Counted from the stretch's first letter, positions 26,151 through 64,000 are shown. The stretch: 64,000 bases of DNA from Verrucomicrobiales bacterium (GCA_028293375.1 JAQGOY010000244.1:3927-67926); one strand, 5' to 3'. Notes: a model not told the origin generated them from the sequence alone. Translations and numbers: made by a program.

Positions 26151-27608
26151 TCAGGCAATAACAGGATCAATCGCTTTCCCGGCTATCCCGGTAAGGCGAA
26201 TATCCAGACCCTGGAACTTAATGGATAGGCGGGTATGCTCTACGCCAAGAAGTTTCAGCATGGTGGCGTGCAAATCATGAACATCCACCACGTTCTCCAC
26301 CGCTGAATAACCAAGTTCGTCCGTCGCTCCAAACACGGTTCCACCCTTCACGCCGCCTCCCGCCAGCCAAACACTGAAACCGGCATTATGATGATCGCGT
26401 CCATCTCCCCCCTGGCTCATGGGAGTGCGCCCAAACTCTCCTGCCCAGACGATGAGTGTGTCATCCAGCATGCCCCGCTGTTTCAAGTCCGTAATCAGCG
26501 CCATGCATGCACGATCCACCTCCGCCGCTTTTAGTGCGATTCCGTCTTTCACCCCGCCATGATGATCCCAATCCTTATGATACAATTGAATGAACCGCAC
26601 GCCACGCTCCGCTAGTCTGCGGGCCAGGAGGCAATTGGACGCAAAAGACCCATCACCCGGCTGGCAACCGTAAAGATCCAATGTTTTTTGTGATTCCTTT
26701 TTGGTTTCCATCAACTCTGGCACACTGGCCTGCATCTTAAATGCCATCTCATATTGGGCAATCCGTGTAGCGATTTCGGGATCGTCCGCCACCGCATCGT
26801 ATCGGGTATTGATCTTGTTCACGGCGTCAATCACATCGCGTTGCTGGCTTCGGGTGACTCCTGGGGGATTGCCAAGGTACAAGACAGGGTCGCCCTTGCC
26901 CCGCAAGTGAACGCCCTGAAAGCGGCTGGGGAGCAGGCCCGCAGCCCATTGGCGAGCCGCAATCGGTTGATTCTGTCCACCCTTGCCAAGGGAAGTGAGG
27001 ACCACGAAACCTGGCAGATCCTCCGCCTCGCAGCCGAGACCGTAAACTGCCCATGAACCCATGCTGGGCCTGCCTGCAATCTGGGAACCGGTGTTCATGA
27101 ACATATGAGCCGGATCATGGTTGATCGCTTCCGTGGTCATCGAACGAATGAGACAGATGTCGTCCATCACCGAGCCAATTTGCGGAAAGAGCTCACAGAT
27201 TTCCGCCTGGCTTTTGCCGAACTTCTTAAATTTATGCTGAGGTCCAAAACAGAGAAGCTTGGCCCCCTGCAATTGCGCGATCTGTTTTCCTGCCGTGAAG
27301 GACTCGGGCATCGGTTGCCCATGCATTGCGGCCAGCTTGGGTTTGTAATCAAATGTCTCCAGATGCGAAGGTCCTCCTGCCATCGTCAACCAGATCACCC
27401 GTTTTGCCTTGATGGGAAAATGAGGAGGATGAACTACTCCGGGCCACTTGTCGTTCGCTGCCCGGGGCGCCGCGGCGACTGCATTTGAAAGAAGACTCGG
27501 CCCAAGCAGGGACGCCAGGGCAATTTTACCGACGCCATGAGCAGCCCGACCCAAAAAAACTCTTCGACTGGTTTTCTCGTCCGCAAAATAGATATGTGGA
27601 GAACTCAT
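26151..27608 (-). CDS. DUF1501-domain protein (sulfatase-fold, Tat signal)
   Basis: Twin-arginine leader TSRRVFLGRAA. Characteristic motifs include HDPAHMFMNTG, DHHGG and GRDHH. Paired with the upstream DUF1549/DUF1553 gene. Confidence 0.9.
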   Translation of the reverse strand: MSSPHIYFADEKTSRRVFLGRAAHGVGKIALASLLGPSLLSNAVAAAPRAANDKWPGVVHPPHFPIKAKRVIWLTMAGGPSHLETFDYKPKLAAMHGQPMPESFTAGKQIAQLQGAKLLCFGPQHKFKKFGKSQAEICELFPQIGSVMDDICLIRSMTTEAINHDPAHMFMNTGSQIAGRPSMGSWAVYGLGCEAEDLPGFVVLTSLGKGGQNQPIAARQWAAGLLPSRFQGVHLRGKGDPVLYLGNPPGVTRSQQRDVIDAVNKINTRYDAVADDPEIATRIAQYEMAFKMQASVPELMETKKESQKTLDLYGCQPGDGSFASNCLLARRLAERGVRFIQLYHKDWDHHGGVKDGIALKAAEVDRACMALITDLKQRGMLDDTLIVWAGEFGRTPMSQGGDGRDHHNAGFSVWLAGGGVKGGTVFGATDELGYSAVENVVDVHDLHATMLKLLGVEHTRLSIKFQGLDIRLTGIAGKAIDPVIA

Positions 27609-27628
27609 AATTCAAATATCAACCGCTA

Positions 27629-30600
27629 TCAATTTCGCGTTACCGTTTCGTGAAGGTTTAGAATCACGCGGCAGACACTCGTCCATGCCGCCAGTTCAAC
27701 AGGATCAATTCCATCCGGGTTCGGGGCCAGACCAACGTGTATGACCAATTTAGCCGCTTCTGGATCGCTGTAATATTCGGCTAGCTGACGGCCCACCAGA
27801 TCACGGCTTATCTTTATTTCGTCGGTTCTTGGAAGGCGTCCAAGTGCCTGTTTCCACGCCCAATTGATCCGTGTACTCATCTCTTTGCCCCCGAACTGGA
27901 TGACCCGAGCGGCCAGCGCCCTGGAGGCTTCCACGTAGCTTGGATCGTTCAGCAAAGCGAGCGCTTGTTGTGGGATATTTGATCGATTTCTTTCAGCAAC
28001 GCATTCCTCCCTGGTCGGTGCATCAAACGCGACCATGCTCGGATGCAGGTAGGATCGCTGCCACCAGGTATAAATTCCACGTCGATACTGGTCGTCGCCC
28101 GTACTTTTTTCCCAGGTCCTGACAGGAAAGTTCAGGTTTTCCCAGTACCCATCCGGTTGGTAAGGCTTGACGCTGGGGCCTCCTATTTTCTCGACCAGCA
28201 ACCCGGAAATCGCCAGGGCATTGTCGCGCACCAGTTCGGCCTCCAACCGCCACCTGCCCTGCGCCGAGAACTCCCGGTTTTGAGGATCCACCGCCAACGC
28301 TTTTCCCGACATGACTGAGCTCTGTCGATAGGTCCTGCTGGTGACCAGAAGCTTGACCATATGTTTTAAATCCCATTCGCTCTCCATGAACTCACAGGAG
28401 AGCCAATCGAGAAGAGCCTGGTTCTTTGGCGATTCTCCCTGCGCGCCAAAATCATCCAGCGACTTGGCCAACCCTGCTCCGAAAAACTCTTTCCAAAGTC
28501 GGTTCATCGTCACCCGAGCAGTCAGTGGATTTTCTTTGGCAATCAACCAATCCGCTAGGTCGAGCCGCGTGAGTTGCGGTTTTTCATACTTTTGCCACGA
28601 GGCCTTAAGGTAACCGGGAAATGCCGGCTTCACTTTTTCGCCAGTCTCCACCAGGAAATTCCCACGGGGAAGAATTCGAACAGTCCTTGGATTGGGCTCG
28701 GAAACCGAGACAAGACAACGCGGCACGGTCGCTTCAAAATCAGTTTTCGATTTTTTGGCTCCTGCGATTTCCTGCCGCAGGCTCATCAGTTCCGTCGCCT
28801 GCTTTTTGTATTCATCCCAAAGTTTATCCTTCTGCGCCTGGTTCCGCTTCTCAGGCGCCAGGGCTGCAATATCGGCGATTTCTTTAGTTGGTGAAACCGG
28901 GATTTTATTGGTCAAAGCCTCGGGATTCGACGTTGCACCCAGCCGAAAGTGCCCAAGGGTGTGGCTGCCGTGTCCATGGTTTTGCACCAATTCTATCTTT
29001 AACGTGTCACCCGTTTTGAACTCCAGTGGAGTTTCAATTTCCAATTGAAGCTGCTGCCTCCGCGCCACTTCCGGCAGGATCGCCCAGCCTGTCGAATCTT
29101 CCCTGGCATTTGCATCCAGCACAGAGGCTGCGCTCCACAATTTATAAGGATTGCTTTCTGCGGCGACTGATTGTTCGAAGCTCGCGCGAGCAGAATGAAA
29201 ACTCACGGGTTCCGTGGTTCCATCCCCATGCTGCACGACCGCACGAATCCGAGTTAAAACAAAGTTTCCGTTGTTGGCCCGACCCGGCCCCTTGGCCGGC
29301 AAAGAGTCGTCCGGCAATGCTTCGATCCGCAACCCTCTCACCACTCCAGAAAGGTTTGTCAGGGTGATCGCGTAGGTGTCTTTTTCAGGCTTCTTCTTTC
29401 CAGATGCAAGAATGGATTGATCGGATTTAATGTCCAGTTTGACCCCTTCAGCAGATTCCGCGCTAGAAGGCGTTAAGGCAGCCCAAAGTCGATCTCTTTC
29501 AACTGCGGAAGTTTGTTCCCGCTCCCAGGTGGCAAAGGAGTCCTTTAATTCTGGATGTGGCCCGTTGTATTGCGCTTCGAGGCCCGTCAGTTTCGATTCC
29601 CATTTTACCAACTCATCCGCCTGCGCCTGGTCCTTCGGAACGAACATCCCGGGTTCGCGCGCTCCAATAATCGGCTCCTTGATGTCAGCAAAAAATGCGC
29701 CCATGGAATAGAAATCATGGGAAGTGATCGGATCAAATTTGTGGTCGTGACACTGGGCGCAACCAATCGTCTGACCCAGCCAGACTGCGCCAATGGCTCG
29801 CACCCGGTCAGTCAACATCCGGGCCTCGTAATCCTTTGCCTGCGCGCCCCCTTCTTCGGTCGAAAGAAGCAATCGGTTAAAGGCAGAGGCCACTTTTTGA
29901 TCCAGGGTCGAATTTGGCAGAAGATCACCAGCCAGTTGTTCACGAGTGAAAACATCAAACGGTTTGTTTTCATTAAAGGATCGGATCACATAATCGCGGT
30001 AAGGCCAAATGTTCCGACCCGTGTCGGAGTGATATCCGATGGTATCGGCAAATCGAACCACATCCAACCACGCGATGGCGCGTCTCTCACCGTAATGGGG
30101 CGAGGCCAACAGCTTTTCAATCAACTCGGGGTACGCGTTTAATGACTTGTTCTGAACAAAACCATCCACCTCTTCCGGTTTGGGCGGCACACCAATTAGA
30201 TCAAGATACAATCTGCGAACAAGCGTCCTGCGATCCGCTTCGGCCGCGGGCACAAGCCCTATCGATTTCAATCTTTGCTGCACCAAATAGTCGATTGGAT
30301 TTGATTTCGCGGGAATAGCCGGACGCACAGGGAGTTGGTAAGCCCAGTGACCTTCGTAGGTTGACCCTTCCGCAATCCATCGTTTCAAAAGCTCTTTCTG
30401 TGCAGGACTCAATTTTTTATTCGAGTCGGGAGGAGGCATCAGTTCCTCCGGATCCGCAGAAAAAATACGACGCACGACTTCGCTTTTGTCAGGCTTCCCC
30501 GGAACGAAAGCTTCCTTTTTCAGCGCCTCTTCGCGCACATCCAGACGCATCTTGGCTTTGCGATGACTCGCATCAGGACCATGGCAGTAAAAACAATTGT

Positions 30601-30730
30601 CAGAAAGAATTTGCCTGACGTCACGGTTATAACTGATGGATGGCTTTGCCGCAGCTCCGAGGACGGAACAAAATGAGATATTCAGCAAAACACTCAATAA
30701 GCAAAGACGTAATACAAGTGGGACAGGCAT
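27629..30730 (-). CDS. PSCyt (CxxCH) + DUF1549 + DUF1553 domain protein
   Basis: 1033 aa with a signal peptide and the N-terminal heme motif CFYCHG. DUF1549-like (VRRLYLDLIGVPP) and DUF1553-like C-terminal regions. This is the canonical PVC pairing with DUF1501. Confidence 0.9.
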   Translation of the reverse strand: MPVPLVLRLCLLSVLLNISFCSVLGAAAKPSISYNRDVRQILSDNCFYCHGPDASHRKAKMRLDVREEALKKEAFVPGKPDKSEVVRRIFSADPEELMPPPDSNKKLSPAQKELLKRWIAEGSTYEGHWAYQLPVRPAIPAKSNPIDYLVQQRLKSIGLVPAAEADRRTLVRRLYLDLIGVPPKPEEVDGFVQNKSLNAYPELIEKLLASPHYGERRAIAWLDVVRFADTIGYHSDTGRNIWPYRDYVIRSFNENKPFDVFTREQLAGDLLPNSTLDQKVASAFNRLLLSTEEGGAQAKDYEARMLTDRVRAIGAVWLGQTIGCAQCHDHKFDPITSHDFYSMGAFFADIKEPIIGAREPGMFVPKDQAQADELVKWESKLTGLEAQYNGPHPELKDSFATWEREQTSAVERDRLWAALTPSSAESAEGVKLDIKSDQSILASGKKKPEKDTYAITLTNLSGVVRGLRIEALPDDSLPAKGPGRANNGNFVLTRIRAVVQHGDGTTEPVSFHSARASFEQSVAAESNPYKLWSAASVLDANAREDSTGWAILPEVARRQQLQLEIETPLEFKTGDTLKIELVQNHGHGSHTLGHFRLGATSNPEALTNKIPVSPTKEIADIAALAPEKRNQAQKDKLWDEYKKQATELMSLRQEIAGAKKSKTDFEATVPRCLVSVSEPNPRTVRILPRGNFLVETGEKVKPAFPGYLKASWQKYEKPQLTRLDLADWLIAKENPLTARVTMNRLWKEFFGAGLAKSLDDFGAQGESPKNQALLDWLSCEFMESEWDLKHMVKLLVTSRTYRQSSVMSGKALAVDPQNREFSAQGRWRLEAELVRDNALAISGLLVEKIGGPSVKPYQPDGYWENLNFPVRTWEKSTGDDQYRRGIYTWWQRSYLHPSMVAFDAPTREECVAERNRSNIPQQALALLNDPSYVEASRALAARVIQFGGKEMSTRINWAWKQALGRLPRTDEIKISRDLVGRQLAEYYSDPEAAKLVIHVGLAPNPDGIDPVELAAWTSVCRVILNLHETVTRN

Positions 30731-37939: not shown

Positions 37940-38098
37940 GGAGAGCTAACAATATTGTTCGAGGATAAAAATAAGGACGGCATCTTCTTGATACAATGAA
38001 TAATACGCGGAGCTAGCTTTCTCAAATCAATCCATTCCCAGACCCCGGCTTCGAAAATAGTTTGTAAGATTTCACCAGTTAGCGGCATTTACCTATGA

Positions 38099-39307
38099 AT
38101 GCAGGACATGGATGACAATCAACTGTTGCGCGAGTATAAAGCCAACAACTCCGAAGAGGCTTTTGCCACCCTTGTGGCGCGCCACGTCAATAAAGTCTAT
38201 TCCGCAGCCTTGCGGCATACCGGCAATTCGCACCAGGCTGAGGAAATCACACAATCGGTCTTCATCACTCTGGCCAGACAATCAGGCCAGTTATCCAAGG
38301 CCGTCATCCTGGAAGGTTGGTTGTATCAAACGGCGCGATTGACTGCTCTAACCCGCATCCGCGGAGAAATTCGTCGCGCCAAACGAGAACAGGAGGCCCA
38401 TATGCAAGCCATCGTCAATGAGAATGAATCCGAAGTATGGAAAGAAATCCAGCCCATGCTTGACTCCGCCATAGCGGAGTTAAACGAGGCCGACCGTCAC
38501 GCGGTAGTCTTGCGATTTTTTTATGAAAAGAACATGAAGGAAGTCGGACTCGCCCTGGGCAGCACGGAAGGCGCCGCCACCGTTCGTTTACATCGCGCGT
38601 TGGACAAAATGCGCACTTTCTTCATCAAACATGGTGTAAGTTCCTCCACCGCCATCATCGCCGCAGCAATTTCCGCAAACTCAGTCCAGGCGGCGCCTGC
38701 CCAACTCGCAAAGGCAATCACTGGCGTGGCGATGATAAAAGGCGCAGCTACTGGCGGAGTGACCCTGACTGTTCTGAAAAGCGGCGCTTTGAAAACCATG
38801 ACGGGATTAAAATTGACGACCCTGGCCTTGATCCTCGCCAATGTCTTTACGTCACAGAAAATAGTCGCGACACATTTCAATTTTGCCGGAAAAGCTGATG
38901 CCTGGACTACTCAGTCCAACGCCGCCCTGATTTGGCTCGTGCTAGGTTGTGGGTTTCCCATTTTTTTTGTTGTCATCGGTCATCTCGCCCGCTATCTGAC
39001 CAAAAATAGTAACGCACTGAATCTACCCCATCGGGAATATTGGCTGGCGCCGGAACAAGTCGGTGAAACTTCCGAATATTTTTATCGTCATTTTCACAAG
39101 CTGGCCTTCATGGGTGCACTATTTATGCTTAGCCAAATGTTAATACAGATTGACGCAAACCACCAAAATCCTCCTCATCTCTCTGCTTCGCTGATTTTGG
39201 TATCGGGCGGTTGTTATATCGCGGCCGTGGTCGTTTGGATGGCACGGATGTTTTGGCGCTTCCACCGAATCCCAGCATCTTCCGCTTCCGCCCCGGGCGT
39301 TCATTGA
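38099..39307 (+). CDS. ECF sigma-70 factor fused to a C-terminal multi-pass membrane domain
   Basis: Sigma region 2 (FATLVARHVNKVYSAALRHTGNSHQAEEITQSVF) and region 4 (ADRHAVVLRFFYEKNMKEVGLALGSTEGAATVRLHRALDKMR) fall in the first ~185 aa. An Ala-rich TM follows, then about 4 more TM segments (LIWLVLGCGFPIFFVVIG...). Confidence 0.8.
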   Translation: MQDMDDNQLLREYKANNSEEAFATLVARHVNKVYSAALRHTGNSHQAEEITQSVFITLARQSGQLSKAVILEGWLYQTARLTALTRIRGEIRRAKREQEAHMQAIVNENESEVWKEIQPMLDSAIAELNEADRHAVVLRFFYEKNMKEVGLALGSTEGAATVRLHRALDKMRTFFIKHGVSSSTAIIAAAISANSVQAAPAQLAKAITGVAMIKGAATGGVTLTVLKSGALKTMTGLKLTTLALILANVFTSQKIVATHFNFAGKADAWTTQSNAALIWLVLGCGFPIFFVVIGHLARYLTKNSNALNLPHREYWLAPEQVGETSEYFYRHFHKLAFMGALFMLSQMLIQIDANHQNPPHLSASLILVSGGCYIAAVVVWMARMFWRFHRIPASSASAPGVH

Positions 39308-39466
39308 AAAATTAGGCACGTCCGGAATGGGAAGCAGGGGTCCATCCAGAGGCAGCCCCCGGTTTCGTTAGGCCCCGCCATTTACCGTTCTTCCGCTGCG
39401 GGGATACGAGGTGGCCCGTCTATTGCCTGTTTGCAAAAATAGCTCGAAACGGTATCCTTCGCATTC

Positions 39467-40705
39467 ATGAATGCGACTTCATCCCCATTAAGCCTGCCAA
39501 ATACAGGGCATTCACTTTCTCCAGTCACTCCCAACACGTCCTCGCGACTTCCACGCCCCGTTTGGATTGCAGTCCTTGCCCTGGCCTGTCTGCCCATTGG
39601 TCTGCTTTGGGATATTTCTCATCACTCGAGCATCGGACGCGATACGTTTTGGACGCCTGCCCATATCATCATCCAACTGGGTGGTATCATTCCGGCCCTG
39701 ATGTTCGGGTTAATCGCTTTAAAGACCACTTTTCGCGGCTCTGCAGATGAACGCGAAGGATCCATCTCCATTCTCTCAGCCCGGGCTCCTCTCGGCGCCT
39801 GGGTGACCATTTGGGGTGCGTTCGCCATGGTCACTTCCGCTCCCTTCGACGATTGGTGGCACAACACCTACGGCCTCGACGTCAAAATAATCAGTCCCCC
39901 TCACTCCATTTTAGGCGTTGGAATGTTTTTCGTGGGACTGGGGGTTTTGCTTTTTGTCTTTTCCGCTCAAAATCGGGCCACCGTCCTCAGCGAGAAACAA
40001 CTCGGTTTTCTCTGCGCCCTCGCCGTGGGAGTGATGGTCACGATGATTGCGGATTTCACCACCGAATTTACCTGGCCCAACGCACAGCATGGCAGCCGGT
40101 TCTATTACGTCATGTGCACTGCCTTCCCCCTGCTTCTCGTCATGGCTGCCAGAGCCGCAAAAGTCAAATGGGCTGCCACTATCGCTGCCGGGACTTACAT
40201 GCTCATTTTCATTTTCATGATCATCGCATTGCCTCTTTTTCCCGCTCAACCCAAGCTCGCTCCCATCTACAATCCCATCACTCACATGGTCCCTCCAGCC
40301 TTCCCCATGTTATTGATTCTTCCTGCACTGGGGCTCGATATTTTAGTTGCTCGATTTTCCAAAGCAACCTCCGTTAAACCCGGATCAACAGTCACTGCGA
40401 AAACTCCCTGGTGGAGCGACTGGCTTCTCGCCATGGCTGTCGGGGTTGCCTACCTTGCAATTGTTGTTGTTGTGCAATGGCCATTCTCCGGCTTCCTTCT
40501 GAGCGATCACGCCGATAATTTCTTTTTCGCCCGTAGCGGGCACTGGCCCTATTTTTCGAACCGGGGAGAGTGGTTCAATACCTTTTGGACAAGCGGCATC
40601 GAGCCCCTCACTGCCGCCTCCCTGGTCCTTGCTTTTCTTCGAGCCTTCATTTCCGCCCGCCTCGGCTTGGGGCTCGGTAATTATCTTCACAAATTGAAGC
40701 GATGA
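39467..40705 (+). CDS. Polytopic (~10 TM) membrane protein with conserved His/Asp/Trp motifs, unknown family
   Basis: 412 aa with motifs LWDISHHSSIGRDTFWTPAHI, APFDDWWHNTYGLD and PPHSILG. Its stop overlaps the next ATG (ATGA at 40702-40705). Confidence 0.7.
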   Translation: MNATSSPLSLPNTGHSLSPVTPNTSSRLPRPVWIAVLALACLPIGLLWDISHHSSIGRDTFWTPAHIIIQLGGIIPALMFGLIALKTTFRGSADEREGSISILSARAPLGAWVTIWGAFAMVTSAPFDDWWHNTYGLDVKIISPPHSILGVGMFFVGLGVLLFVFSAQNRATVLSEKQLGFLCALAVGVMVTMIADFTTEFTWPNAQHGSRFYYVMCTAFPLLLVMAARAAKVKWAATIAAGTYMLIFIFMIIALPLFPAQPKLAPIYNPITHMVPPAFPMLLILPALGLDILVARFSKATSVKPGSTVTAKTPWWSDWLLAMAVGVAYLAIVVVVQWPFSGFLLSDHADNFFFARSGHWPYFSNRGEWFNTFWTSGIEPLTAASLVLAFLRAFISARLGLGLGNYLHKLKR

Positions 40706-42282
40706 GCCGAATTCTTTCCGTATTTCTCGTCGCCATCCTTTGTTTGTGGACCTCCACCTCCGAGGCCCACGTCGGGAGCCCGAATGTCATCCTCGAAGGC
40801 AAAGCAGGCAACTACCCTGTGCGCATTGTTATTCGACCACCTGACGTGATCCCTGGTGTCGCTGAAATAACCATCAAAGTCGAGTCCGGCAACCCCAGCA
40901 AAGTCACCGTTCGTCCTGTTTTTTCAGATATCGGCAAAAAAGGATCTCCAGCTCCAGATGAGGCAAAACGCATCCACGACCAACCTCCACAATTTAATGC
41001 CGGGCTGTGGTTCATGAAAATGGGCACTTATAGTGTCGATGTGGAAGTGGAGGGAGATCGCGGTCATGGAAGTCTTTCTGTCCCGGTTAACGCCTCCGCC
41101 ACCAACACCCGGCCCATGACCAAACCCTACGCAGCTGTCCTCATCGCCCTCGGGTTGTTTCTCTTTTTTGGCGCTCTCGCCATTATTCGTTCTGCCTGGG
41201 GCCAAAGCCTCGTGCCTCCGGGCGCCGCGCCCACATTGCGCGATCGTCGGCGTGGGCTGATCGCAGTGAGCGTCGGAACATTGTTCCTCTCCGCATCCCT
41301 CTTCGGCGGGAAATATTGGTGGAACCTGGACGAAATGGATTACAAAAATAATCGTCTTTATAAACAAGTGCCGGTCGCCGCAACCATTCAGTCCTCACTC
41401 GATCAGCTTTTATTGGAAATTCACATTGATGCCAAAGGCAACCGCACCCGATGGGCACCGCTTATTCCAGACCATGGGAAGCTTATGCACCTGTTCCTGG
41501 TTCGAAAAGGTGCCCCTAATATTTTCGCTCATCTTCATCCAGCAGCCAAAAAAGACAATTTCTTCAGCGTCCCCTTGCCGCCGCTGATGGAAGGCGTCTA
41601 CGATTTTTTTGGCGATATCACCCACGAAAATGGCTTTGCTGAAACTCTGACCGGCAGCGTCGAAATTCCCGCTCCCCCAGCGCGAATCACCCGCCTTTAT
41701 ACCATCGATGAGAGCGATCCCAATTGTTCGCCCATTTGGTATGAGCAGAAAAACATGAATGGCCTGGTTCCCCCGGATCCGGATGACAGCACTACCAGTT
41801 CGTTCAGCTTCGATTCTGCCGGATCAAGCGCACAAGTAGGTCGCTACCTCAAGATTGTCTGGCTGAACCCAGGTAATTATAAAAAAGACGAGCAAGTCAC
41901 CCTGAAATTCCAAATGCAGGACAAAAATAATAAACCTGTGGAACTCCAGAACTACATGGGCATGGAAGGTCACGCTATTTTCCGGAAACTTGAAAACGAT
42001 GTCTTCGCGCATGTTCACCCCTTGGGGACGTTTTCCATGGCCTCCCAACAACTTTTCACCCAAAAGGAAAAAGTCATCTCCAGCAAAGAGTCGCCTGCCA
42101 CAAACCCGTCAAACTCCTTTAACAACTCGAACGATATGGATGATCACGTGAAGAGCGATGGCTTTTCCGAGGTTTCGTTTCCCTATGCATTTCCCAGGGC
42201 GGGCCGTTATCAATTTTGGGTGCAAATGAAAACTTCCGGCCGAATCTATACAGGAACCTTCCATACCGAAATTCAGCCTTAG
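40702..42282 (+). CDS. Exported, membrane-anchored protein: YcnI/DUF1775-like N-terminal domain (inferred) + 2 TM + two HxHP modules
   Basis: Signal peptide ...WTSTSEA followed by HVGSPNV. TM helices AAVLIALGLFLFFGALAIIRSAW and LIAVSVGTLFLSASLF. Duplicated motifs IFAHLHP and VFAHVHP. Confidence 0.65.
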   Translation: MSRILSVFLVAILCLWTSTSEAHVGSPNVILEGKAGNYPVRIVIRPPDVIPGVAEITIKVESGNPSKVTVRPVFSDIGKKGSPAPDEAKRIHDQPPQFNAGLWFMKMGTYSVDVEVEGDRGHGSLSVPVNASATNTRPMTKPYAAVLIALGLFLFFGALAIIRSAWGQSLVPPGAAPTLRDRRRGLIAVSVGTLFLSASLFGGKYWWNLDEMDYKNNRLYKQVPVAATIQSSLDQLLLEIHIDAKGNRTRWAPLIPDHGKLMHLFLVRKGAPNIFAHLHPAAKKDNFFSVPLPPLMEGVYDFFGDITHENGFAETLTGSVEIPAPPARITRLYTIDESDPNCSPIWYEQKNMNGLVPPDPDDSTTSSFSFDSAGSSAQVGRYLKIVWLNPGNYKKDEQVTLKFQMQDKNNKPVELQNYMGMEGHAIFRKLENDVFAHVHPLGTFSMASQQLFTQKEKVISSKESPATNPSNSFNNSNDMDDHVKSDGFSEVSFPYAFPRAGRYQFWVQMKTSGRIYTGTFHTEIQP

Positions 42283-42337
42283 CTCTATACCCGAATTTTC
42301 CCGGATGCAGTCCAATAGCTCCACGGAAAAAGGGATT

Positions 42338-42802
42338 ATGGAAAAAAATTATAACGTCACACGGGAACAGTTGGTGGATCTGCTAAACGAAGATTTGTCT
42401 CGCGAATACCAGGCTGTCATTGCCTACACGGTCTACAGCCAGATCATCAAGGGCGCTGCCTACACAGACATCGCGCGTGAACTACAAAAACACGCCGGCG
42501 AAGAACTGGAGCACGCCATCAAAATCGCCAAACAGATCGATTATCTTGGAGGAACGCCCACCACTGTGCCAAAGGAAGTAAAGCTTTCCGAAAAACCGGA
42601 AGAGCTTCTCCGGTTCGATTTGGAAAACGAGCGAGAGACCATTGCCAATTACCGCCTCCGCATCCGTCAGGCCGAAGCGATGGGTGAATTTGCCTTAAGC
42701 GAAGCCCTCCGGGATATTATTGTCCAGGAACAGGAACACCTCACCGACCTCGCCGATGCTTTGGGAATAGATGTGCCCCTCCCCAAAAAACTGGAAAAAT
42801 AG
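42338..42802 (+). CDS. Ferritin-like (bacterioferritin/Dps-like) di-iron protein
   Basis: LNEDLSREYQAVIAYTVY...HAGEELEHAIKIAKQIDYLGGTP...ENERETIANY...QEQEHLTDL gives a four-helix ExxH pattern. Start set at the ATG at 42338 (alternative ATG at 42305). Confidence 0.75.
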   Translation: MEKNYNVTREQLVDLLNEDLSREYQAVIAYTVYSQIIKGAAYTDIARELQKHAGEELEHAIKIAKQIDYLGGTPTTVPKEVKLSEKPEELLRFDLENERETIANYRLRIRQAEAMGEFALSEALRDIIVQEQEHLTDLADALGIDVPLPKKLEK

Positions 42803-42828
42803 TTCCATCCACACATTTGAAAACAAGG

Positions 42829-42858
42829 AATGCGGACCCCAAAGGTTCCGCATTTTTT
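42829..42858 (+). terminator. Rho-independent terminator closing the 38.1-42.8 kb gene run
   Basis: AATGCGGA-ccccaaaggt-TCCGCATT followed by TTTT. Confidence 0.7.
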
Positions 42859-42902
42859 ATGCAACCTTGTTCTTTTTCCGGTTTTAATTAGGGTAGATTT
42901 TG

Positions 42903-43505
42903 ATGTCCGATTCGCATGATCACGATGCCGAACTCATGTTGCGCGTACGCGATGGGGACATCCTTGCCTTTGAGGAGCTGGTTGAAAAATACAAACAGCT
43001 CGTCATCCATGTGGCCTACCGCTCTTTAAAAGACCAGGCAGAAGCAGAGGATTTGGCTCAAACTGTTTTTGTTCAGGTATTTAAATCCGCCTCCCGTTAC
43101 GAACCCACCGCCAAATTCTCCACCTGGTTGTTTACCATCTGCCGAAACCTTTGCCTTAACGAGATCCGCCGCAGGTCCAGGCATCCCGCAGAGTCCTTGG
43201 ATGAACCGGTCCAATATTCCGAAGATTCCGCCCCCCGCCAATATGAGGACCTTAAGGTTCCAGGTGCTTCGGATCTCCTGCTGCGGGAAGAACTGGAACA
43301 AAAAATCGACGAAGCGATCAACGATTTACCGGAAAACCAGCGAACTGCTCTAATGCTCTGCAAACAGGAAGAGGCCTCCTACGAGGACATATCTGCTATT
43401 CTTGGCTGCAGTCTGTCCGCCACTAAGTCCTTGATACACAGGGCTCGGGAGACGTTGAAAATGAAACTAAAACCCTATCTAAAATCAGGCGTATGGCAGC
43501 AATAA
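42903..43505 (+). CDS. ECF (RpoE-like) sigma-70 factor
   Basis: Region 2 (AFEELVEKYKQLVIHVAYRSLKDQAEAEDLAQTVFVQVF) and region 4 (LPENQRTALMLCKQEEASYEDISAILGCSLSATKSLIHRARETLK). Confidence 0.9.
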   Translation: MSDSHDHDAELMLRVRDGDILAFEELVEKYKQLVIHVAYRSLKDQAEAEDLAQTVFVQVFKSASRYEPTAKFSTWLFTICRNLCLNEIRRRSRHPAESLDEPVQYSEDSAPRQYEDLKVPGASDLLLREELEQKIDEAINDLPENQRTALMLCKQEEASYEDISAILGCSLSATKSLIHRARETLKMKLKPYLKSGVWQQ

Positions 43506-43583
43506 TCTCCTTTGTAACAGTCTGGAGGCGAACCGGGCCTCGAAACTTTTATCGCGCTGAAGAGTTTACCTATTAGAAGACGT

Positions 43584-44084
43584 ATGGCAGACAAAAATTA
43601 CCAGGAACTAAAGGAACAAAGCTGGATCCGGGAATTGACATCCACGGAAAAGGCCGAGTTGCAGTCCTTTCTTTCGGAACATCCTGAACTCCAGTCCGAA
43701 TGGGAGGGTGACGTTTGTTTAACCGAGCTGTTGGAACACGAGTCATTAGTCGTTCCCTCTTCTAACTTTACTTCCCTCGTTATGAAGGAAGTCCTGCGCC
43801 TGGAAAAAGCAAGAAACAGAAGACCCCAATCGCTCTGGACTCATTTTATCACTGGCCGTTGGATTCCGCGCGTTTCTCTTGCCGCCGTGGCGGCGCTCGT
43901 CCTCTTCTTAAGCGTTCATCAATACCAGCAAAATGCCCGGGCTGAAATGGCCTTGAGCGTGGATCGGATGATGAAAGTAGTTACAGTTCCACAAATGGAA
44001 TGGTTGCAGGATTTCGAGGCCATCAATTGTCTCCAGGTCCCCCCTCCTTCCACCGATGACGGCTTAATGCAGGCTTTGGAATGA
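43584..44084 (+). CDS. Putative single-pass anti-sigma factor
   Basis: 166 aa directly after the ECF sigma gene, with one TM (VSLAAVAALVLFLSV). Its stop overlaps the next start. Assigned by position and architecture only. Confidence 0.55.
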   Translation: MADKNYQELKEQSWIRELTSTEKAELQSFLSEHPELQSEWEGDVCLTELLEHESLVVPSSNFTSLVMKEVLRLEKARNRRPQSLWTHFITGRWIPRVSLAAVAALVLFLSVHQYQQNARAEMALSVDRMMKVVTVPQMEWLQDFEAINCLQVPPPSTDDGLMQALE

Positions 44085-45061
44085 AATTTCGCCCTCCAAG
44101 TTATGTCGGTGCTTTCGTAGCCCTCGTCGCGGCAAGTCTTGGAATTTCAATATTTCCTGATCTGCATGGCGCTTCTACTCCAAAAGTAAAAGAGGCCATT
44201 CCATCTGGGGAATCTCCATCCCCCAGCTCAGAAAAAAAACCGCCCACCGAGCAGTTTCGCAGGCTGCTTAAAATGAGTCCTTCCCAAAGACAGTCAGAGC
44301 TCGCCTCCAAGGATCAGGAAAAGCGCGATTACATCCTTTCCAAATTAAAAGAATACGAAAGCCTGCCTGAAAACGAACGTGAAGTTCGCCTTAAACAATT
44401 GGAATTGCGCTGGTATCTCTTGCCTCTGCTCAAGATGGCCCCTTCAAACCGCGTCGAACGCCTCAGCGCCATCCCGCCCGAAAGCCAAAAACTCCTCGCG
44501 GATCGCCTTATCCAATGGGATTTGTTGCCCCCTGTCCTGCAGAAGGAATTTCTGGAACACGAAGGTACCGTTGCCTATTTCATTCGTCTGGAAGCCAAAA
44601 CTCCCGAAGAACAATCCGAAGTCTGGCAAAGTGTCCCTGTCGATAAACGCGCGCCACTCGAGAAGGCTTTGTCAGAATGGCACACCCTGCCCGAAGAGCG
44701 GCGCCAGGGCATGTATTCCCGCGTTCATCAGTTTTTCGAACTCAACGATCGTGAAAAAGAACGCACCCTCGCCACCCTGCCAGGTGCCGATCGACAGGAC
44801 ATGGACAAAGCCCTTGCCAACTTTCAAAAATTGCCCGTCGAAAAAAGGGTGGCCGCTATTGAGTCTTTTCAAAAACTAAGTCAATTGAGCCCGGAAGCAC
44901 GCGCCCAGTTTCTCAAGAATGCCGAACATTGGGCGGGTATGTCTCCTGAAGATAGGCAGATGTGGCGCGATCTTGTCTCCAAGGTCCCTGCCATGCCACC
45001 TTTGCCTCCCGGCTTTCAGATTATGCCACCCGTTCCCGGCGGCCTGGCTGCTCAAAAATAA
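44081..45061 (+). CDS. Periplasmic repeat protein (DUF3106-like) of the ECF sigma operon
   Basis: Signal peptide, then repeated helical motifs of the type LPENEREVRLKQLELRW / LPEERRQGMYSRVHQFF / LSPEARAQFLKNAEHWAGMSPEDRQMWR. Confidence 0.5.
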   Translation: MKFRPPSYVGAFVALVAASLGISIFPDLHGASTPKVKEAIPSGESPSPSSEKKPPTEQFRRLLKMSPSQRQSELASKDQEKRDYILSKLKEYESLPENEREVRLKQLELRWYLLPLLKMAPSNRVERLSAIPPESQKLLADRLIQWDLLPPVLQKEFLEHEGTVAYFIRLEAKTPEEQSEVWQSVPVDKRAPLEKALSEWHTLPEERRQGMYSRVHQFFELNDREKERTLATLPGADRQDMDKALANFQKLPVEKRVAAIESFQKLSQLSPEARAQFLKNAEHWAGMSPEDRQMWRDLVSKVPAMPPLPPGFQIMPPVPGGLAAQK

Positions 45062-61980: not shown

Positions 61981-62099
61981 CAGGCGAGTTTAAGACTTAC
62001 CTTCTTCAGGTGGTGGGCCGGACGGTTGGCTGGAAAAGATCGACCATGTAAACCCCACCCAGTTTTACCAGGAGGTAATTACCGCCACATTTTTGCGAT

Positions 62100-62564
62100 T
62101 TACTCATCAAGTCCTTCGCCATAGCTAAACCGTCGGCATACAACTATCAGGTCACCCGGATCGATTTTAACTTTTAAAAATTGCTCCCATTCAGCATTTT
62201 TGGAAGTTAAAGGGTGAAGTATTGATTGTAATATGCATTCTTTCTTAATAACCCTGATTCTTAGTCCATCTCCAGATCCACCCACAATATTCAATACTGT
62301 CCTAAGAGTGCAGTTGGTTGAGATTGAAATCTCACTTTTCCCTTCCAGCCCAGCGTCAAAGTTACAGACCTTTCTAGTACTCCTATCTTTTACTGACTGA
62401 ACTGAACAGAAAAGTGCTCTTAGATCGCGTTTCGGTTCGAATATCCATTGCCCGGTCGTAATCGCCGATTGTCCCCAATGAACTTCGTTCGTTTCCGACA
62501 ACTGGCCAAAACCTCTGCACGTAAATACCACAACCGTAGCAACCATTAGTAGGTGAGTTTTCAT
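62100..62564 (-). CDS. Hypothetical secreted protein (orphan, AT-rich)
   Basis: 154-aa ORF with signal-like N-terminus MKTHLLMVATVVVFTCRGFG. No family recognised. Confidence 0.5.
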   Translation of the reverse strand: MKTHLLMVATVVVFTCRGFGQLSETNEVHWGQSAITTGQWIFEPKRDLRALFCSVQSVKDRSTRKVCNFDAGLEGKSEISISTNCTLRTVLNIVGGSGDGLRIRVIKKECILQSILHPLTSKNAEWEQFLKVKIDPGDLIVVCRRFSYGEGLDE

Positions 62565-62704
62565 AATTCTTTAATAAATTTAGTCAATGGCCTGGAAAGC
62601 TACGAGTATCATCAGTTAAAGGTTTTCGGTTAAATTTTGCTCGGATCCAATTTAAATTTGTTTTCACGGATAGGGTCTCACCCACTCGCATAACAGTTAG
62701 AATA

Positions 62705-62956
62705 TTAGTCAAATGATTCTGGCTTATACAGTGATGGTAAATTATTATTCTGTTTCCAAAAGATGATCAACCGGCTGCAGGCAGGACATTTATACATATC
62801 ATCGTTTTCAAGGCGGATTACATCAAAAACGTTTTCGAGCACGCTTTGCTCATGCAGAGAGTCCATGGTCTCAGATGAAATTATTTTAAACTCATCGGGG
62901 GACGGATGGATGATTAAGTTTATAATATGCCCACATTTACAAGCAATTTTTGCCAT
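62705..62956 (-). CDS. Hypothetical small zinc-ribbon protein (orphan, AT-rich)
   Basis: 83 aa with CKCGH near the N-terminus and CPAC near the C-terminus. Confidence 0.5.
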   Translation of the reverse strand: MAKIACKCGHIINLIIHPSPDEFKIISSETMDSLHEQSVLENVFDVIRLENDDMYKCPACSRLIIFWKQNNNLPSLYKPESFD

Positions 62957-63192
62957 ATGACTCTCATTTTTGAATAATTATAACGTTGCGAATTCTATCT
63001 GCCTCGTTATTCTGGGCAATCTTGATTATGGTATCGGATACTTCCTCTCAAGTCTTAGCTTGACCCTATGTGTCGGACCACGGAACCCGGTTTTTAGCTC
63101 GCTTTCACCCCCCCCAATGACAGCGTCACCGAAAAGTTGCAACTCCCACACTTCAAAAATCCCCCCATGAACCCACGCGGAGCACTAAACTG

Positions 63193-63239
63193 GAATCCCA
63201 ACGGGATTCAAGGCCCAAAGCCAAGCGGTTGACGCGAAG
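63193..63239 (+). repeat. Copy 2 of the 47-bp dispersed repeat
   Basis: GAATCCCAACGGGATTCAAGGCCCAAAGCCAAGCGGTTGACGCGAAG, 43/47 identical to 60256-60302 and in the same orientation. Confidence 0.85.
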
Positions 63240-63303
63240 CAGTCTAATTTCGAGCTGACCGCATATCCCAATCTCCTTGACACGCGTCCTAATGGGTGAC
63301 CCC

Positions 63304-63834
63304 TTAGATAGATGCTTCAATTCCAAGCGCCGTAAAAACATGATTCACCAATTTATCGTTAATATTTGCAATGGCCTCATTGACTATTATATCTGAAGGC
63401 TTATCAAACGAACTCGGCCCCCAAATGTTTACGTCGGACGAACCAGATCCGTAGCTAGGGCTAAAAAGCTTGATTAAATTCCCCTCAGTATCAGCCAGCC
63501 TCCACCAGTAATCTCGATTGCTAAAAAACGAACCAATCCGATATGTCGCAATTTTTTGAACGTCAATACCCGATTTCCACCCAACCGCCCGCCGAGACTT
63601 TTCTGGCGAATCAGAGATAGTAATCTCGAGCGTGATATCCTCCTTATTCTTCGGCACCAACTCCAAAGACACGAAATAAACGACCCGTCTCGTCTGGAGG
63701 TAATCATCACAGATGTAGTTAGTTCCTCGGGGTCTATTTGGCGTTTCCCTTAGATCGACTGGTTTCAAAAAGGGAAAGTTTCCAGCCCAGTTTGCCTTAA
63801 TCTGGTTCACGAGAATTCTTTGAATGGGTAACAT
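63304..63834 (-). CDS. Hypothetical protein (orphan), tightly coupled to the upstream partial gene
   Basis: 176-aa ORF. Its ATG at 63834 lies 3 nt after the stop (63838-63840) of the preceding minus-strand ORF. Confidence 0.55.
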   Translation of the reverse strand: MLPIQRILVNQIKANWAGNFPFLKPVDLRETPNRPRGTNYICDDYLQTRRVVYFVSLELVPKNKEDITLEITISDSPEKSRRAVGWKSGIDVQKIATYRIGSFFSNRDYWWRLADTEGNLIKLFSPSYGSGSSDVNIWGPSSFDKPSDIIVNEAIANINDKLVNHVFTALGIEASI

Positions 63835-63837
63835 TGG

Positions 63838-64000
63838 TCAAAGCAGGTTCGATAAATATTCGTATAAGCCTTGCACACCATAAACAAAATTAATTTTGGT
63901 AACAGCGCCCCCTCCCTCAGCCAACGCTTTCTCGACTTTATTAACGTTCTCTGGATTTATTAAGCTCCAAACCATTACCTGTGTACTGTTGTTTGCGGCG
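63838..64000 (-). CDS. 3' end of an unknown protein gene (start outside the window; not in the ORF track)
   Basis: The minus strand is stop-free from 64000 to the TGA at 63840-63838: ...AANNSTQVMVWSLINPENVNKVEKALAEGGGAVTKINFVYGVQGLYEYLSNLL*. Confidence 0.4.
   Translation of the reverse strand, partial: AANNSTQVMVWSLINPENVNKVEKALAEGGGAVTKINFVYGVQGLYEYLSNLL

Follow-up and report, generated by a model that had tools for sequence, protein, structure and literature searches.

What is the functional unit encoded between positions 38,099 and 42,858 of a 64,000-nucleotide (nt) stretch of DNA from a Verrucomicrobiales bacterium (GCA_028293375.1 JAQGOY010000244.1:3927-67926), and what might that unit do? 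The stretch as a whole, i.e., all 64,000 nt, is referred to here as the window. Four open reading frames (ORFs) are found in the region in question, all on one strand and followed by a terminator-like hairpin. These encode a sigma factor of the extracytoplasmic function (ECF) type, a membrane protein of 412 amino acids (aa), an exported protein of 526 aa, and a ferritin-like protein. An initial annotation of the window, made from the sequence, read the four genes as a single, ECF-sigma-led system. The functional unit is instead a two-gene module, positions 39467-42282, consisting of the middle two genes. The first four transmembrane (TM) helices of the 412-aa protein, as judged from sequence comparison, are homologous to the core of PmoC/AmoC, that is, to subunit C of the copper membrane monooxygenases (CuMMOs). 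The oxidation of methane and of ammonia is controlled by these enzymes, which include particulate methane monooxygenase (pMMO), ammonia monooxygenase (AMO), and hydrocarbon monooxygenases, and whose active site has only recently been placed, in the so-called CuC/CuD pocket of subunit C. What would appear to be new here is a CuMMO subunit-C copper core found in a different, two-gene context, one with a wide distribution among soil and freshwater phyla. The two genes are as follows:

39467-40705, + strand: gene 1 of the pair, 412 aa, a predicted inner-membrane protein of 10 TM helices, both termini cytoplasmic, belonging to an unannotated family
40702-42282, + strand: gene 2 of the pair, 526 aa, with a predicted signal peptide and a TM hairpin that separates beta-sandwich 1 from beta-sandwiches 2 and 3, all three sandwiches being placed in the periplasm

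That these two genes belong together is seen with their relatives. A scan of one genome per species (GTDB) for relatives of the 412-aa protein returned at least 563 loci, of which the best 80 were analysed together with flanks of up to 8 kb. Those 80 come from Verrucomicrobiota, Acidobacteriota (Thermoanaerobaculia, Vicinamibacteria, Blastocatellia), Gemmatimonadota, Binatia, Methylomirabilota, and Rhodothermia. An additional sample consisted of four metagenomic long contigs carrying relatives at 58-64% identity. A homologue of the 526-aa protein is encoded directly after the 412-aa homologue in 78 of the 80 loci as well as on all four extra contigs. The two exceptions are a pair that has been split by a 2-kb insertion (locus L004) and a contig that ends after gene 1 (L079). 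Within the window the two genes share a 4-nt overlap (ATGA), as they do also in three of four inspected relatives, and it is through this overlap that gene 2 would usually be translationally coupled to gene 1. The 412-aa family is indeed large, comprising 2,102 clusters at 50% identity (E<=1e-3), or 329 given a threshold of E<=1e-30.

Little else travels with the pair. All-versus-all clustering of flanking ORFs gave no other neighbour family in more than 13 of the 80 loci, and a Pfam census of nearest neighbours revealed no common theme, the most frequent being ABC_tran upstream (3 of 68) and M28 peptidase downstream (7 of 66). The flanks of the four extra relatives are unrelated to each other (ApbE/FMN_bind, ankyrin repeats, MIOX, PQQ propeller, PS decarboxylase, Fe-SOD). 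A ferritin-like ORF was found within 8 kb in none of the 80 loci (E<=1, filters off), nor on the four extra contigs. Likewise, a sigma gene that is both adjacent to and co-directional with the pair was found in none of the 80 and on none of the four contigs; an ECF sigma gene is present anywhere in the flank in just 5-6 of the 80 loci. Since the pair is constant but a ferritin gene and an adjacent, co-directional sigma gene were found in none of these relatives, the conserved unit is the two-gene module rather than the four-gene run, and the ECF sigma and ferritin-like genes are neighbours specific to this organism.

Three individual loci may be described in passing. The insertion that splits the pair at L004 (L004:1285-3073; CAZNOE010000514.1, a contig of a metagenome-assembled genome, or MAG) contains the genes of a candidate defence pair, HEC-01A (AAA_21 ATPase, E 5e-135) and HEC-01B (DUF4276, E 4e-71). 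A Verrucomicrobiia MAG (DATEKZ01) possesses two paralogous copies of the pair, L002 and L042, which are 66% and 42% identical to the window protein. At L085 (L085:1-2243), an MbnP protein plus a CCP_MauG protein, resembling the copper-related MbnPH pair, are encoded along with a DHOR protein 3-5 kb upstream of the pair, a single case which may be coincidence.

Annotation resources are silent on what the two proteins might be. Neither has a match in Pfam or NCBIfam, whether searched whole or by individual domain and with thresholds as loose as E<=10, nor among PDB sequences using either single-sequence or profile searches, and database relatives of both are all labelled hypothetical proteins. 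The spacing of motifs within the 412-aa protein, however, is that of the two PmoC copper sites, and it is for that reason that a comparison with PmoC was made. The elements which that comparison identifies are these:

39587-39970, + strand: PmoC/AmoC-homologous core, residues 41-168 (TM1-TM4), as delimited by hhalign and by a PmoC-only hidden Markov model (HMM)
39611-39664, + strand: predicted CuC-equivalent site, D49-x3-H53-x12-H66 (DISHHSSIGRDTFWTPAH), from translation and alignment with PmoC D127/H131/H144, and including the shared second-shell residues R58-D59-T60 and T63-P64
39848-39904, + strand: predicted CuD-equivalent site, D128-x3-H132-x13-H146 (DDWWHNTYGLDVKIISPPH), from translation and alignment with PmoC N198/H202/H216, with Asp where PmoC has Asn

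As query, Methylococcus capsulatus PmoC was used, a sequence which is 100% identical to PDB chain 7ev9_C. Alignment by hhalign of a profile of the 412-aa family with this single PmoC gave a probability of 52.8% (E 1.4e-4). With a profile built instead from 30 PF04896 proteins the probability was 81% (E 1.2e-5, over 115 columns), and with a diversified, 126-sequence, multi-phylum profile of the 412-aa family it was 83% (E 9e-6). Control PmoC profiles (reversed, column-shuffled, or block-shuffled) gave 0.1-1.6%, other than one block shuffle which retained the RDTxFTP loop and gave 24.8%. The same signal is seen at the level of a database, here 4,695 six-frame ORFs from 80 loci, against which the PmoC searches were run. 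An unfiltered HMM made from 30 PmoC/AmoC proteins returned members of the 412-aa family as its top 65 matches (E 3.5e-4 to 0.06), and single-sequence phmmer with PmoC returned them as 49 of its top 50 (best E 2.3e-5).

The register of the alignment is such that ligands fall upon ligands. That is, relative to 7ev9_C, D49/H53/H66 are placed on D127/H131/H144, and D128/H132/H146 on N198/H202/H216. Across the 30 aligned PF04896 proteins these six ligand positions are invariant, with H131, H144, H202, and H216 the only invariant histidines. Within the 412-aa family, D49, H53, H66, D128, H132, and H146 are invariant in 126 of 126 members, as too are D129, W130, and W131. Beyond the ligands, PmoC and the 412-aa family have in common H-x-[ST]-I-x-R-D-T-x-[FW]-T-P-[SA]-H-I at the first site and [ND]-[ED]-W-x-H at the second, and the cytoplasmic loop between the two motifs aligns as well. 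Within CuMMOs, each PmoC site consists of two His plus either Asp or Asn, with the CuC loop conserved and the CuD loop variable (PMC13058606). This same pattern recurs when PmoC is compared with the 412-aa family. On the basis of these alignments, TM1-4 of the 412-aa protein can be described as homologous to the PmoC/AmoC core, though with the likeness to PF04896 being one at the level of a superfamily rather than one of family membership.

Might this likeness instead reflect some ancient or convergent helical-hairpin metal module, one put to other use (a Zn, Fe, or Ni site, a sensor, or a structural element) and involving no copper or oxygen chemistry? The homology spans only about 110-115 residues at 26% identity, its probability stays below 90%, and a single loop contributes much of the score, as the exceptional block shuffle indicates. 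In addition, the variable site of PmoC is seen with Zn bound in crystals, and a structural search (Foldseek) provides no match. Two separate motifs nevertheless agree, with identical spacing (x3/x12 and x3/x13) and the same helix order, and with the intervening cytoplasmic loop also aligning. The database-level enrichment furthermore is complete, extending through the top 65 of 4,695 ORFs, and the partner protein has a predicted mature N-terminal His, which is a hallmark of copper sites. We consider a module of this other sort to be improbable.

The membrane topology of the 412-aa protein is in keeping with the description of the initial annotation, which had envisaged about 10 TM helices along with the motifs WDISHH, PAHI, FDDWWH, and PPHS. 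Ten helices are predicted, nine as Kyte-Doolittle segments plus a helix (109-135) from an AlphaFold2 (AF2) model, with both termini placed in the cytoplasm by the positive-inside rule. The four motifs are at the periplasmic ends of TM1-4, and indeed all of the protein's conserved polar residues are found on the periplasmic side, as judged from the AF2 model and the topology prediction. That model, based on a 48-sequence alignment, has a mean predicted local distance difference test score (pLDDT) of 83 and a predicted template modelling score (pTM) of 0.86. Its Foldseek matches to TRP channels and to respiratory complexes were discarded as noise (E>0.3). The six C-terminal helices, TM5-10, were considered as a possible fused PmoA, an idea that was rejected, as they display no similarity to PmoA.

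For the 526-aa partner the initial annotation had predicted an exported, anchored protein with an N-terminal His and two HxHP modules, and each of these elements can be located: a signal peptide, H23, a TM hairpin, and the motifs HLHP and HVHP. The corresponding features are the following:

40702-40770, + strand: predicted Sec-type signal peptide, residues 1-22 (SEA end, with an SEA-H cut), plus the His23 codon, His23 being the predicted mature N-terminus
41131-41310, + strand: TM hairpin formed by residues 144-162 and 185-203, its cytoplasmic loop being rich in Lys/Arg, from hydropathy and charge (AF2 helices 141-167 and 179-218)
41488-41541, + strand: three-His module of beta-sandwich 2, H263 ... 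H277-L-H279-P280, from translation
41971-42021, + strand: three-His module of beta-sandwich 3, H424 ... H437-V-H439-P440, from translation

His23 is conserved in 85 of 85 family members, with position -1 being Ala in 76 and Gly in 9, and it is from this AxA-H pattern that cleavage before His23 would be expected. Beta-sandwich 1 (residues 29-131) follows, with invariant D86, W103, and M105. Past the TM hairpin, beta-sandwiches 2 (residues 222-325) and 3 (376-526) are homologous repeats (hhalign 94%, E 1.2e-7) for which no known family was matched. Each possesses a three-His set, His-x13/12-His-x-His-Pro, within [GM]-H ... F-A-H-x-H-P, along with a nearby invariant Met or Asp. All of H263, H277, H279, and P280, also D257 and H258, and in the second repeat H424, H437, H439, P440, and M421, are conserved in 85 of 85. 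An AF2 model of the protein (pLDDT 76.5) resembles, by Foldseek versus PDB, generic Ig/FN3 domains plus the copper-resistance protein CrdA (9ll2_A, TM-score 0.66, 106 columns), the latter being the only metal-related structural match.

This architecture brings to mind PmoB, whose CuB site is formed by the N-terminal His33 together with an HxH motif (PMC11725843); mature PmoB chains in PDB do begin at His33. The resemblance nevertheless is best described as an architectural analogy, with homology possible though unproven.

What might such a pair of proteins be doing? In PmoC the CuC/CuD pocket is the pMMO active site (PMC11725843), and the equivalent pocket in both pMMO and AMO is the place of O2-dependent substrate oxidation (PMC11725843, PMC13058606). 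As that pocket oxidises substrate in pMMO and AMO, and as second-shell residues are conserved along with ligands, an oxidase- or oxygenase-type function is favoured here. The two proteins, that is, may constitute a copper-binding membrane complex, with a PmoC/AmoC relative as its core, which carries out the O2-dependent oxidation of some substrate, a reading that we hold tentatively, as quite possibly correct but somewhat short of probable. The analysis shows that the pair is conserved, that its core is homologous to PmoC, that every ligand position is invariant, and how the proteins lie in the membrane; we infer copper as the metal, the physical association of the two proteins, and catalysis. 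In terms of mechanism, the pair would form a copper-loaded membrane complex, with the partner anchored beside the membrane subunit by its TM hairpin. The membrane subunit would hold one or two Cu at its CuC/CuD-equivalent sites, i.e., two adjacent sets of two His plus a carboxylate, near the periplasmic leaflet. Up to three periplasmic His sites of the partner could then bind copper, passing copper and/or electrons to the intramembrane site, where O2-dependent oxidation of a probably hydrophobic substrate would take place. The structural place of PmoA may be taken in this complex by TM5-10 of the gene 1 protein. To the extent that copper is the likeliest metal, as suggested by the PmoC-type copper sites and the His modules, the initial annotation's proposal of envelope handling of a metal, Fe or Cu, holds up for the middle two genes, though not for the sigma factor and the ferritin.

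A number of observations weigh against an enzyme of this kind. The PF04896 (AmoC) model, using standard filters, does not match the 412-aa protein even at E<=10, nor is there a PDB match by profile HMM. In Foldseek of the 412-aa model versus PDB, no match improved on E 0.3, and the top 50 did not include a pMMO chain. The CuD-like site carries Asp128 in place of the Asn of PmoC, while keeping the x3/x13 spacing and both His (H132 and H146). Searches for PmoA and PmoB in all 80 loci, with flanks of +/-8 kb, returned no homologue (best E 0.12 and 1.9, respectively); the queries in this case were single, PDB-verified sequences, used because six look-ups of pmoC had yielded only orphan or phage-context copies. 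The 526-aa protein as a diverged PmoB was rejected, there being no sequence signal (hhalign 0.07%, no phmmer enrichment, no PF04744 match), and its model likewise has no PmoB chain among its top 50 Foldseek matches. Lastly, conservation near the pair in the 80 loci does not extend to any reductase, alcohol dehydrogenase, or other gene of a pathway, and there is thus no hint there as to substrate.

The main rival to an enzyme is copper trafficking, that is, uptake, delivery, or sequestration, as with CopC-CopD or YcnI-YcnJ. Copper would be captured by the beta-sandwich that begins with His23 and then handed to the His/Asp sites of the membrane protein, serving either import or the supply of some cuproenzyme. 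The logic is the same as that of CopCD/YcnIJ, a beta-sandwich with His as first residue plus a His-rich, multi-TM partner, and every conserved ligand faces the periplasm. The module moreover stands alone amid variable housekeeping neighbours, as a homeostasis function would, one domain of the partner resembles CrdA, and some genomes carry paralogous pairs (L002, L042). The CopC, CopD, and YcnI/DUF1775 models, however, are without match even at E<=10. The sole detectable homology is to PmoC, where the equivalent sites are catalytic (PMC11725843), and it is the CuC second-shell residues, not solely the ligands, which have been conserved. Nor are CopA, CueO, CusF, or regulators enriched near the pair. 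Trafficking in our estimation is a serious possibility, albeit an unlikely one.

To return to the oxidation of a substrate by a copper complex, this can be extended to a statement about descent. The pair, that is, might represent a sister lineage of the CuMMOs, a two-subunit copper membrane oxygenase, widespread in non-methanotrophic, non-nitrifying soil and freshwater phyla (Verrucomicrobiota, Acidobacteriota, Gemmatimonadota, and others), which has retained the ancestral CuC/CuD core that gave rise to pMMO and AMO. We view this extension as a real possibility, albeit an unlikely one. In open-access papers and bioRxiv, no account was found of a distant PmoC-like family outside of the CuMMOs. 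Together with the absence of a curated model for either protein, this bears out the initial annotation's impression that the combination is not a described system.

A large unannotated family which apparently retains both CuMMO sites in another subunit context (2,102 clusters, at least 563 species-representative hits, at least six phyla) would offer a natural and independent test of which parts of those sites are essential. The family also is a possible evolutionary outgroup to, or precursor of, the CuMMOs, and potentially adds a novel activity to the copper enzymes of abundant soil bacteria. Should copper trafficking be true instead, then the PmoC core would have been derived from, or recruited to, metal handling.

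The genes to either side of the pair in the window remain to be described. All of the elements on which the initial annotation had relied, i.e., four same-strand ORFs, their spacing, their motifs, and the terminator, are present where it had placed them. Those flanking the pair are:

38099-39307, + strand: ORF of 402 aa, an ECF-type sigma factor that has a membrane region fused at its C-terminus; a neighbour only, outside of the conserved module
42305/42338-42802, + strand: ferritin-like ORF, a predicted cytoplasmic, bacterioferritin/Dps-like di-iron protein; a neighbour only, outside of the conserved module
42829-42858, + strand: intrinsic-terminator-like hairpin plus U-run, with which the same-strand run of this genome ends

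Sigma70_r2 and r4 domains are recognised in the 402-aa protein, whose hydrophobic C-terminal half contains three or more hydrophobic helices and a DUF1648 match that is below threshold, in agreement with its having been described as a membrane-tethered ECF sigma. The last ORF is likewise identified as encoding a ferritin-like di-iron protein: PF00210 (Ferritin) matches at 3e-24, the best PDB match is 2qqy at 9e-19, followed by bacterioferritins, and the sequence displays the di-iron pattern E..ExxH..E..ExxH. A start at 42338 gives 154 aa and agrees with the NCBI gene call in a same-species MAG. The hairpin with its U-run has a folding energy of -18.1 kcal/mol (z = -3.3), with 0 of 200 shuffles equally stable.

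The question is whether these flanking genes, together with the pair, make up a system in which the membrane-tethered ECF sigma drives four genes, the ferritin-like protein included, that would serve to sense, take up, or detoxify Fe or Cu. All four do share a strand, with gaps of 159 nt (sigma to 412-aa gene), -4 nt (the ATGA overlap), and 55 nt (526-aa to ferritin-like gene), and the first terminator-like hairpin comes past the ferritin gene. In addition, an 11-mer, CCCCGGYTTCG, is present upstream of both the sigma and the 412-aa genes. Just two copies exist in the 64 kb, both on the + strand, at 38043-38053 and 39357-39367, thereby preceding the sigma start by 56 nt and the start of the 412-aa gene by 110 nt. 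The pattern, however, was picked post hoc, after both upstream regions had been viewed, the distance to plausible -10 elements is unequal for the two copies, and their flanks align weakly (a weak 24-nt block). An ECF-type promoter common to the region upstream of the sigma gene and to the 159-nt spacer, for which the initial annotation had proposed a search, accordingly did not emerge, and the 11-mer is at most a lead for a local regulatory link. More tellingly, the four-gene layout is seen elsewhere only in the same-species MAG (GCA_028293475.1, also Verrucomicrobiales), two contigs of which are practically identical to the window, as opposed to the 80 loci and four contigs considered above. 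By the initial annotation's own standard, the four genes as a conserved system are thereby refuted, and the sigma-led model strikes us as very improbable.

That is not to say that the genes need be transcribed separately. A terminator-like hairpin was looked for in the 159-nt spacer and not found, and RNA folding there is not unusually stable (z = +1.3). There is no terminator before 42829. The pair may be co-transcribed with one or both of its flanking genes in this organism, which, if it occurs, would be a local arrangement rather than a conserved system.

As to the rest of the window, the surroundings of the four-gene run are housekeeping genes plus genes typical of the Planctomycetes-Verrucomicrobia-Chlamydiae (PVC) group. 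Directly after the terminator (42900-45061, + strand) is a compact operon encoding a second ECF sigma, of 201 aa, an anti-sigma factor of 166 aa with one TM helix, and a DUF3106 protein of 326 aa, so that the four-gene block sits between two ECF sigma genes. At 26151-30730 (- strand) a PSCyt1/PSCyt2/PSD1 protein is encoded beside a DUF1501 protein, a pair typical of Planctomycetes and Verrucomicrobia which fits the taxonomic assignment. Across 62001-64000 the G+C content goes down to 0.43, versus about 0.50-0.54 in the rest of the window.

How, then, does the pair compare with systems that are already known? With PmoC/AmoC the 412-aa protein appears to share the four-helix core, with both sites in register, D-x3-H-x12-H corresponding to CuC and [DN]-x3-H-x13-H to CuD. 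Shared too are RDT and the TPxH loop residues, [ND][ED]WxH, and the location of the sites, on successive TM helices at their periplasmic ends. It differs in that its core is N-terminal, whereas in bacterial PmoC some 125 additional residues precede it, and in having six extra C-terminal TM helices. It differs also in falling below Pfam detection, in its Asp for the CuD Asn, and in that its family is never found beside xmoA or xmoB and occurs in phyla which are neither methanotrophic nor nitrifying.

The 526-aa protein has the same layout as PmoB/AmoB, consisting of a cleaved signal peptide (predicted), an N-terminal His, a beta-sandwich, two TM helices, and then more beta-sandwich. It similarly has HxH motifs and a gene that adjoins one for a C-like subunit. 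It has three domains rather than two, however, and its HxH motifs are located in the duplicated domains past the TM hairpin instead of in the N-terminal domain. Relative to an xmoCAB holoenzyme, the pair is without A and B subunit genes within +/-8 kb in the 80 loci.

With CopC-CopD and YcnI-YcnJ, the pair has in common a periplasmic beta-sandwich with a mature N-terminal His (here predicted), the gene for which adjoins that of a polytopic membrane protein whose conserved His face the periplasm. Unlike those systems, there is no match to PF04234, PF05425, or PF07987 (DUF1775) at E<=10, the membrane partner would be homologous to PmoC rather than to CopD, and the 526-aa protein has a TM hairpin plus two additional three-His domains.

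Orphan copies of pmoC/amoC, including phage-borne pmoC, which reportedly has been published previously, also are PmoC-type genes found away from xmoA and xmoB. All six genuine PmoC/AmoC that were looked up here (L086-L097) were such orphans, i.e., without adjacent amoA/amoB or pmoA/pmoB, and one PmoC copy (P0261) has a phage-like context (PhoH, PDDEXK, and Metallophos genes) that is consistent with published phage-borne pmoC. Those copies, though, are genuine PF04896, are 42-89% identical to M. capsulatus PmoC, and are found in methanotrophs, nitrifiers, or their phages, where presumably they plug into an existing pMMO or AMO. The 412-aa family, by contrast, is far more distant and comes with its own dedicated partner.

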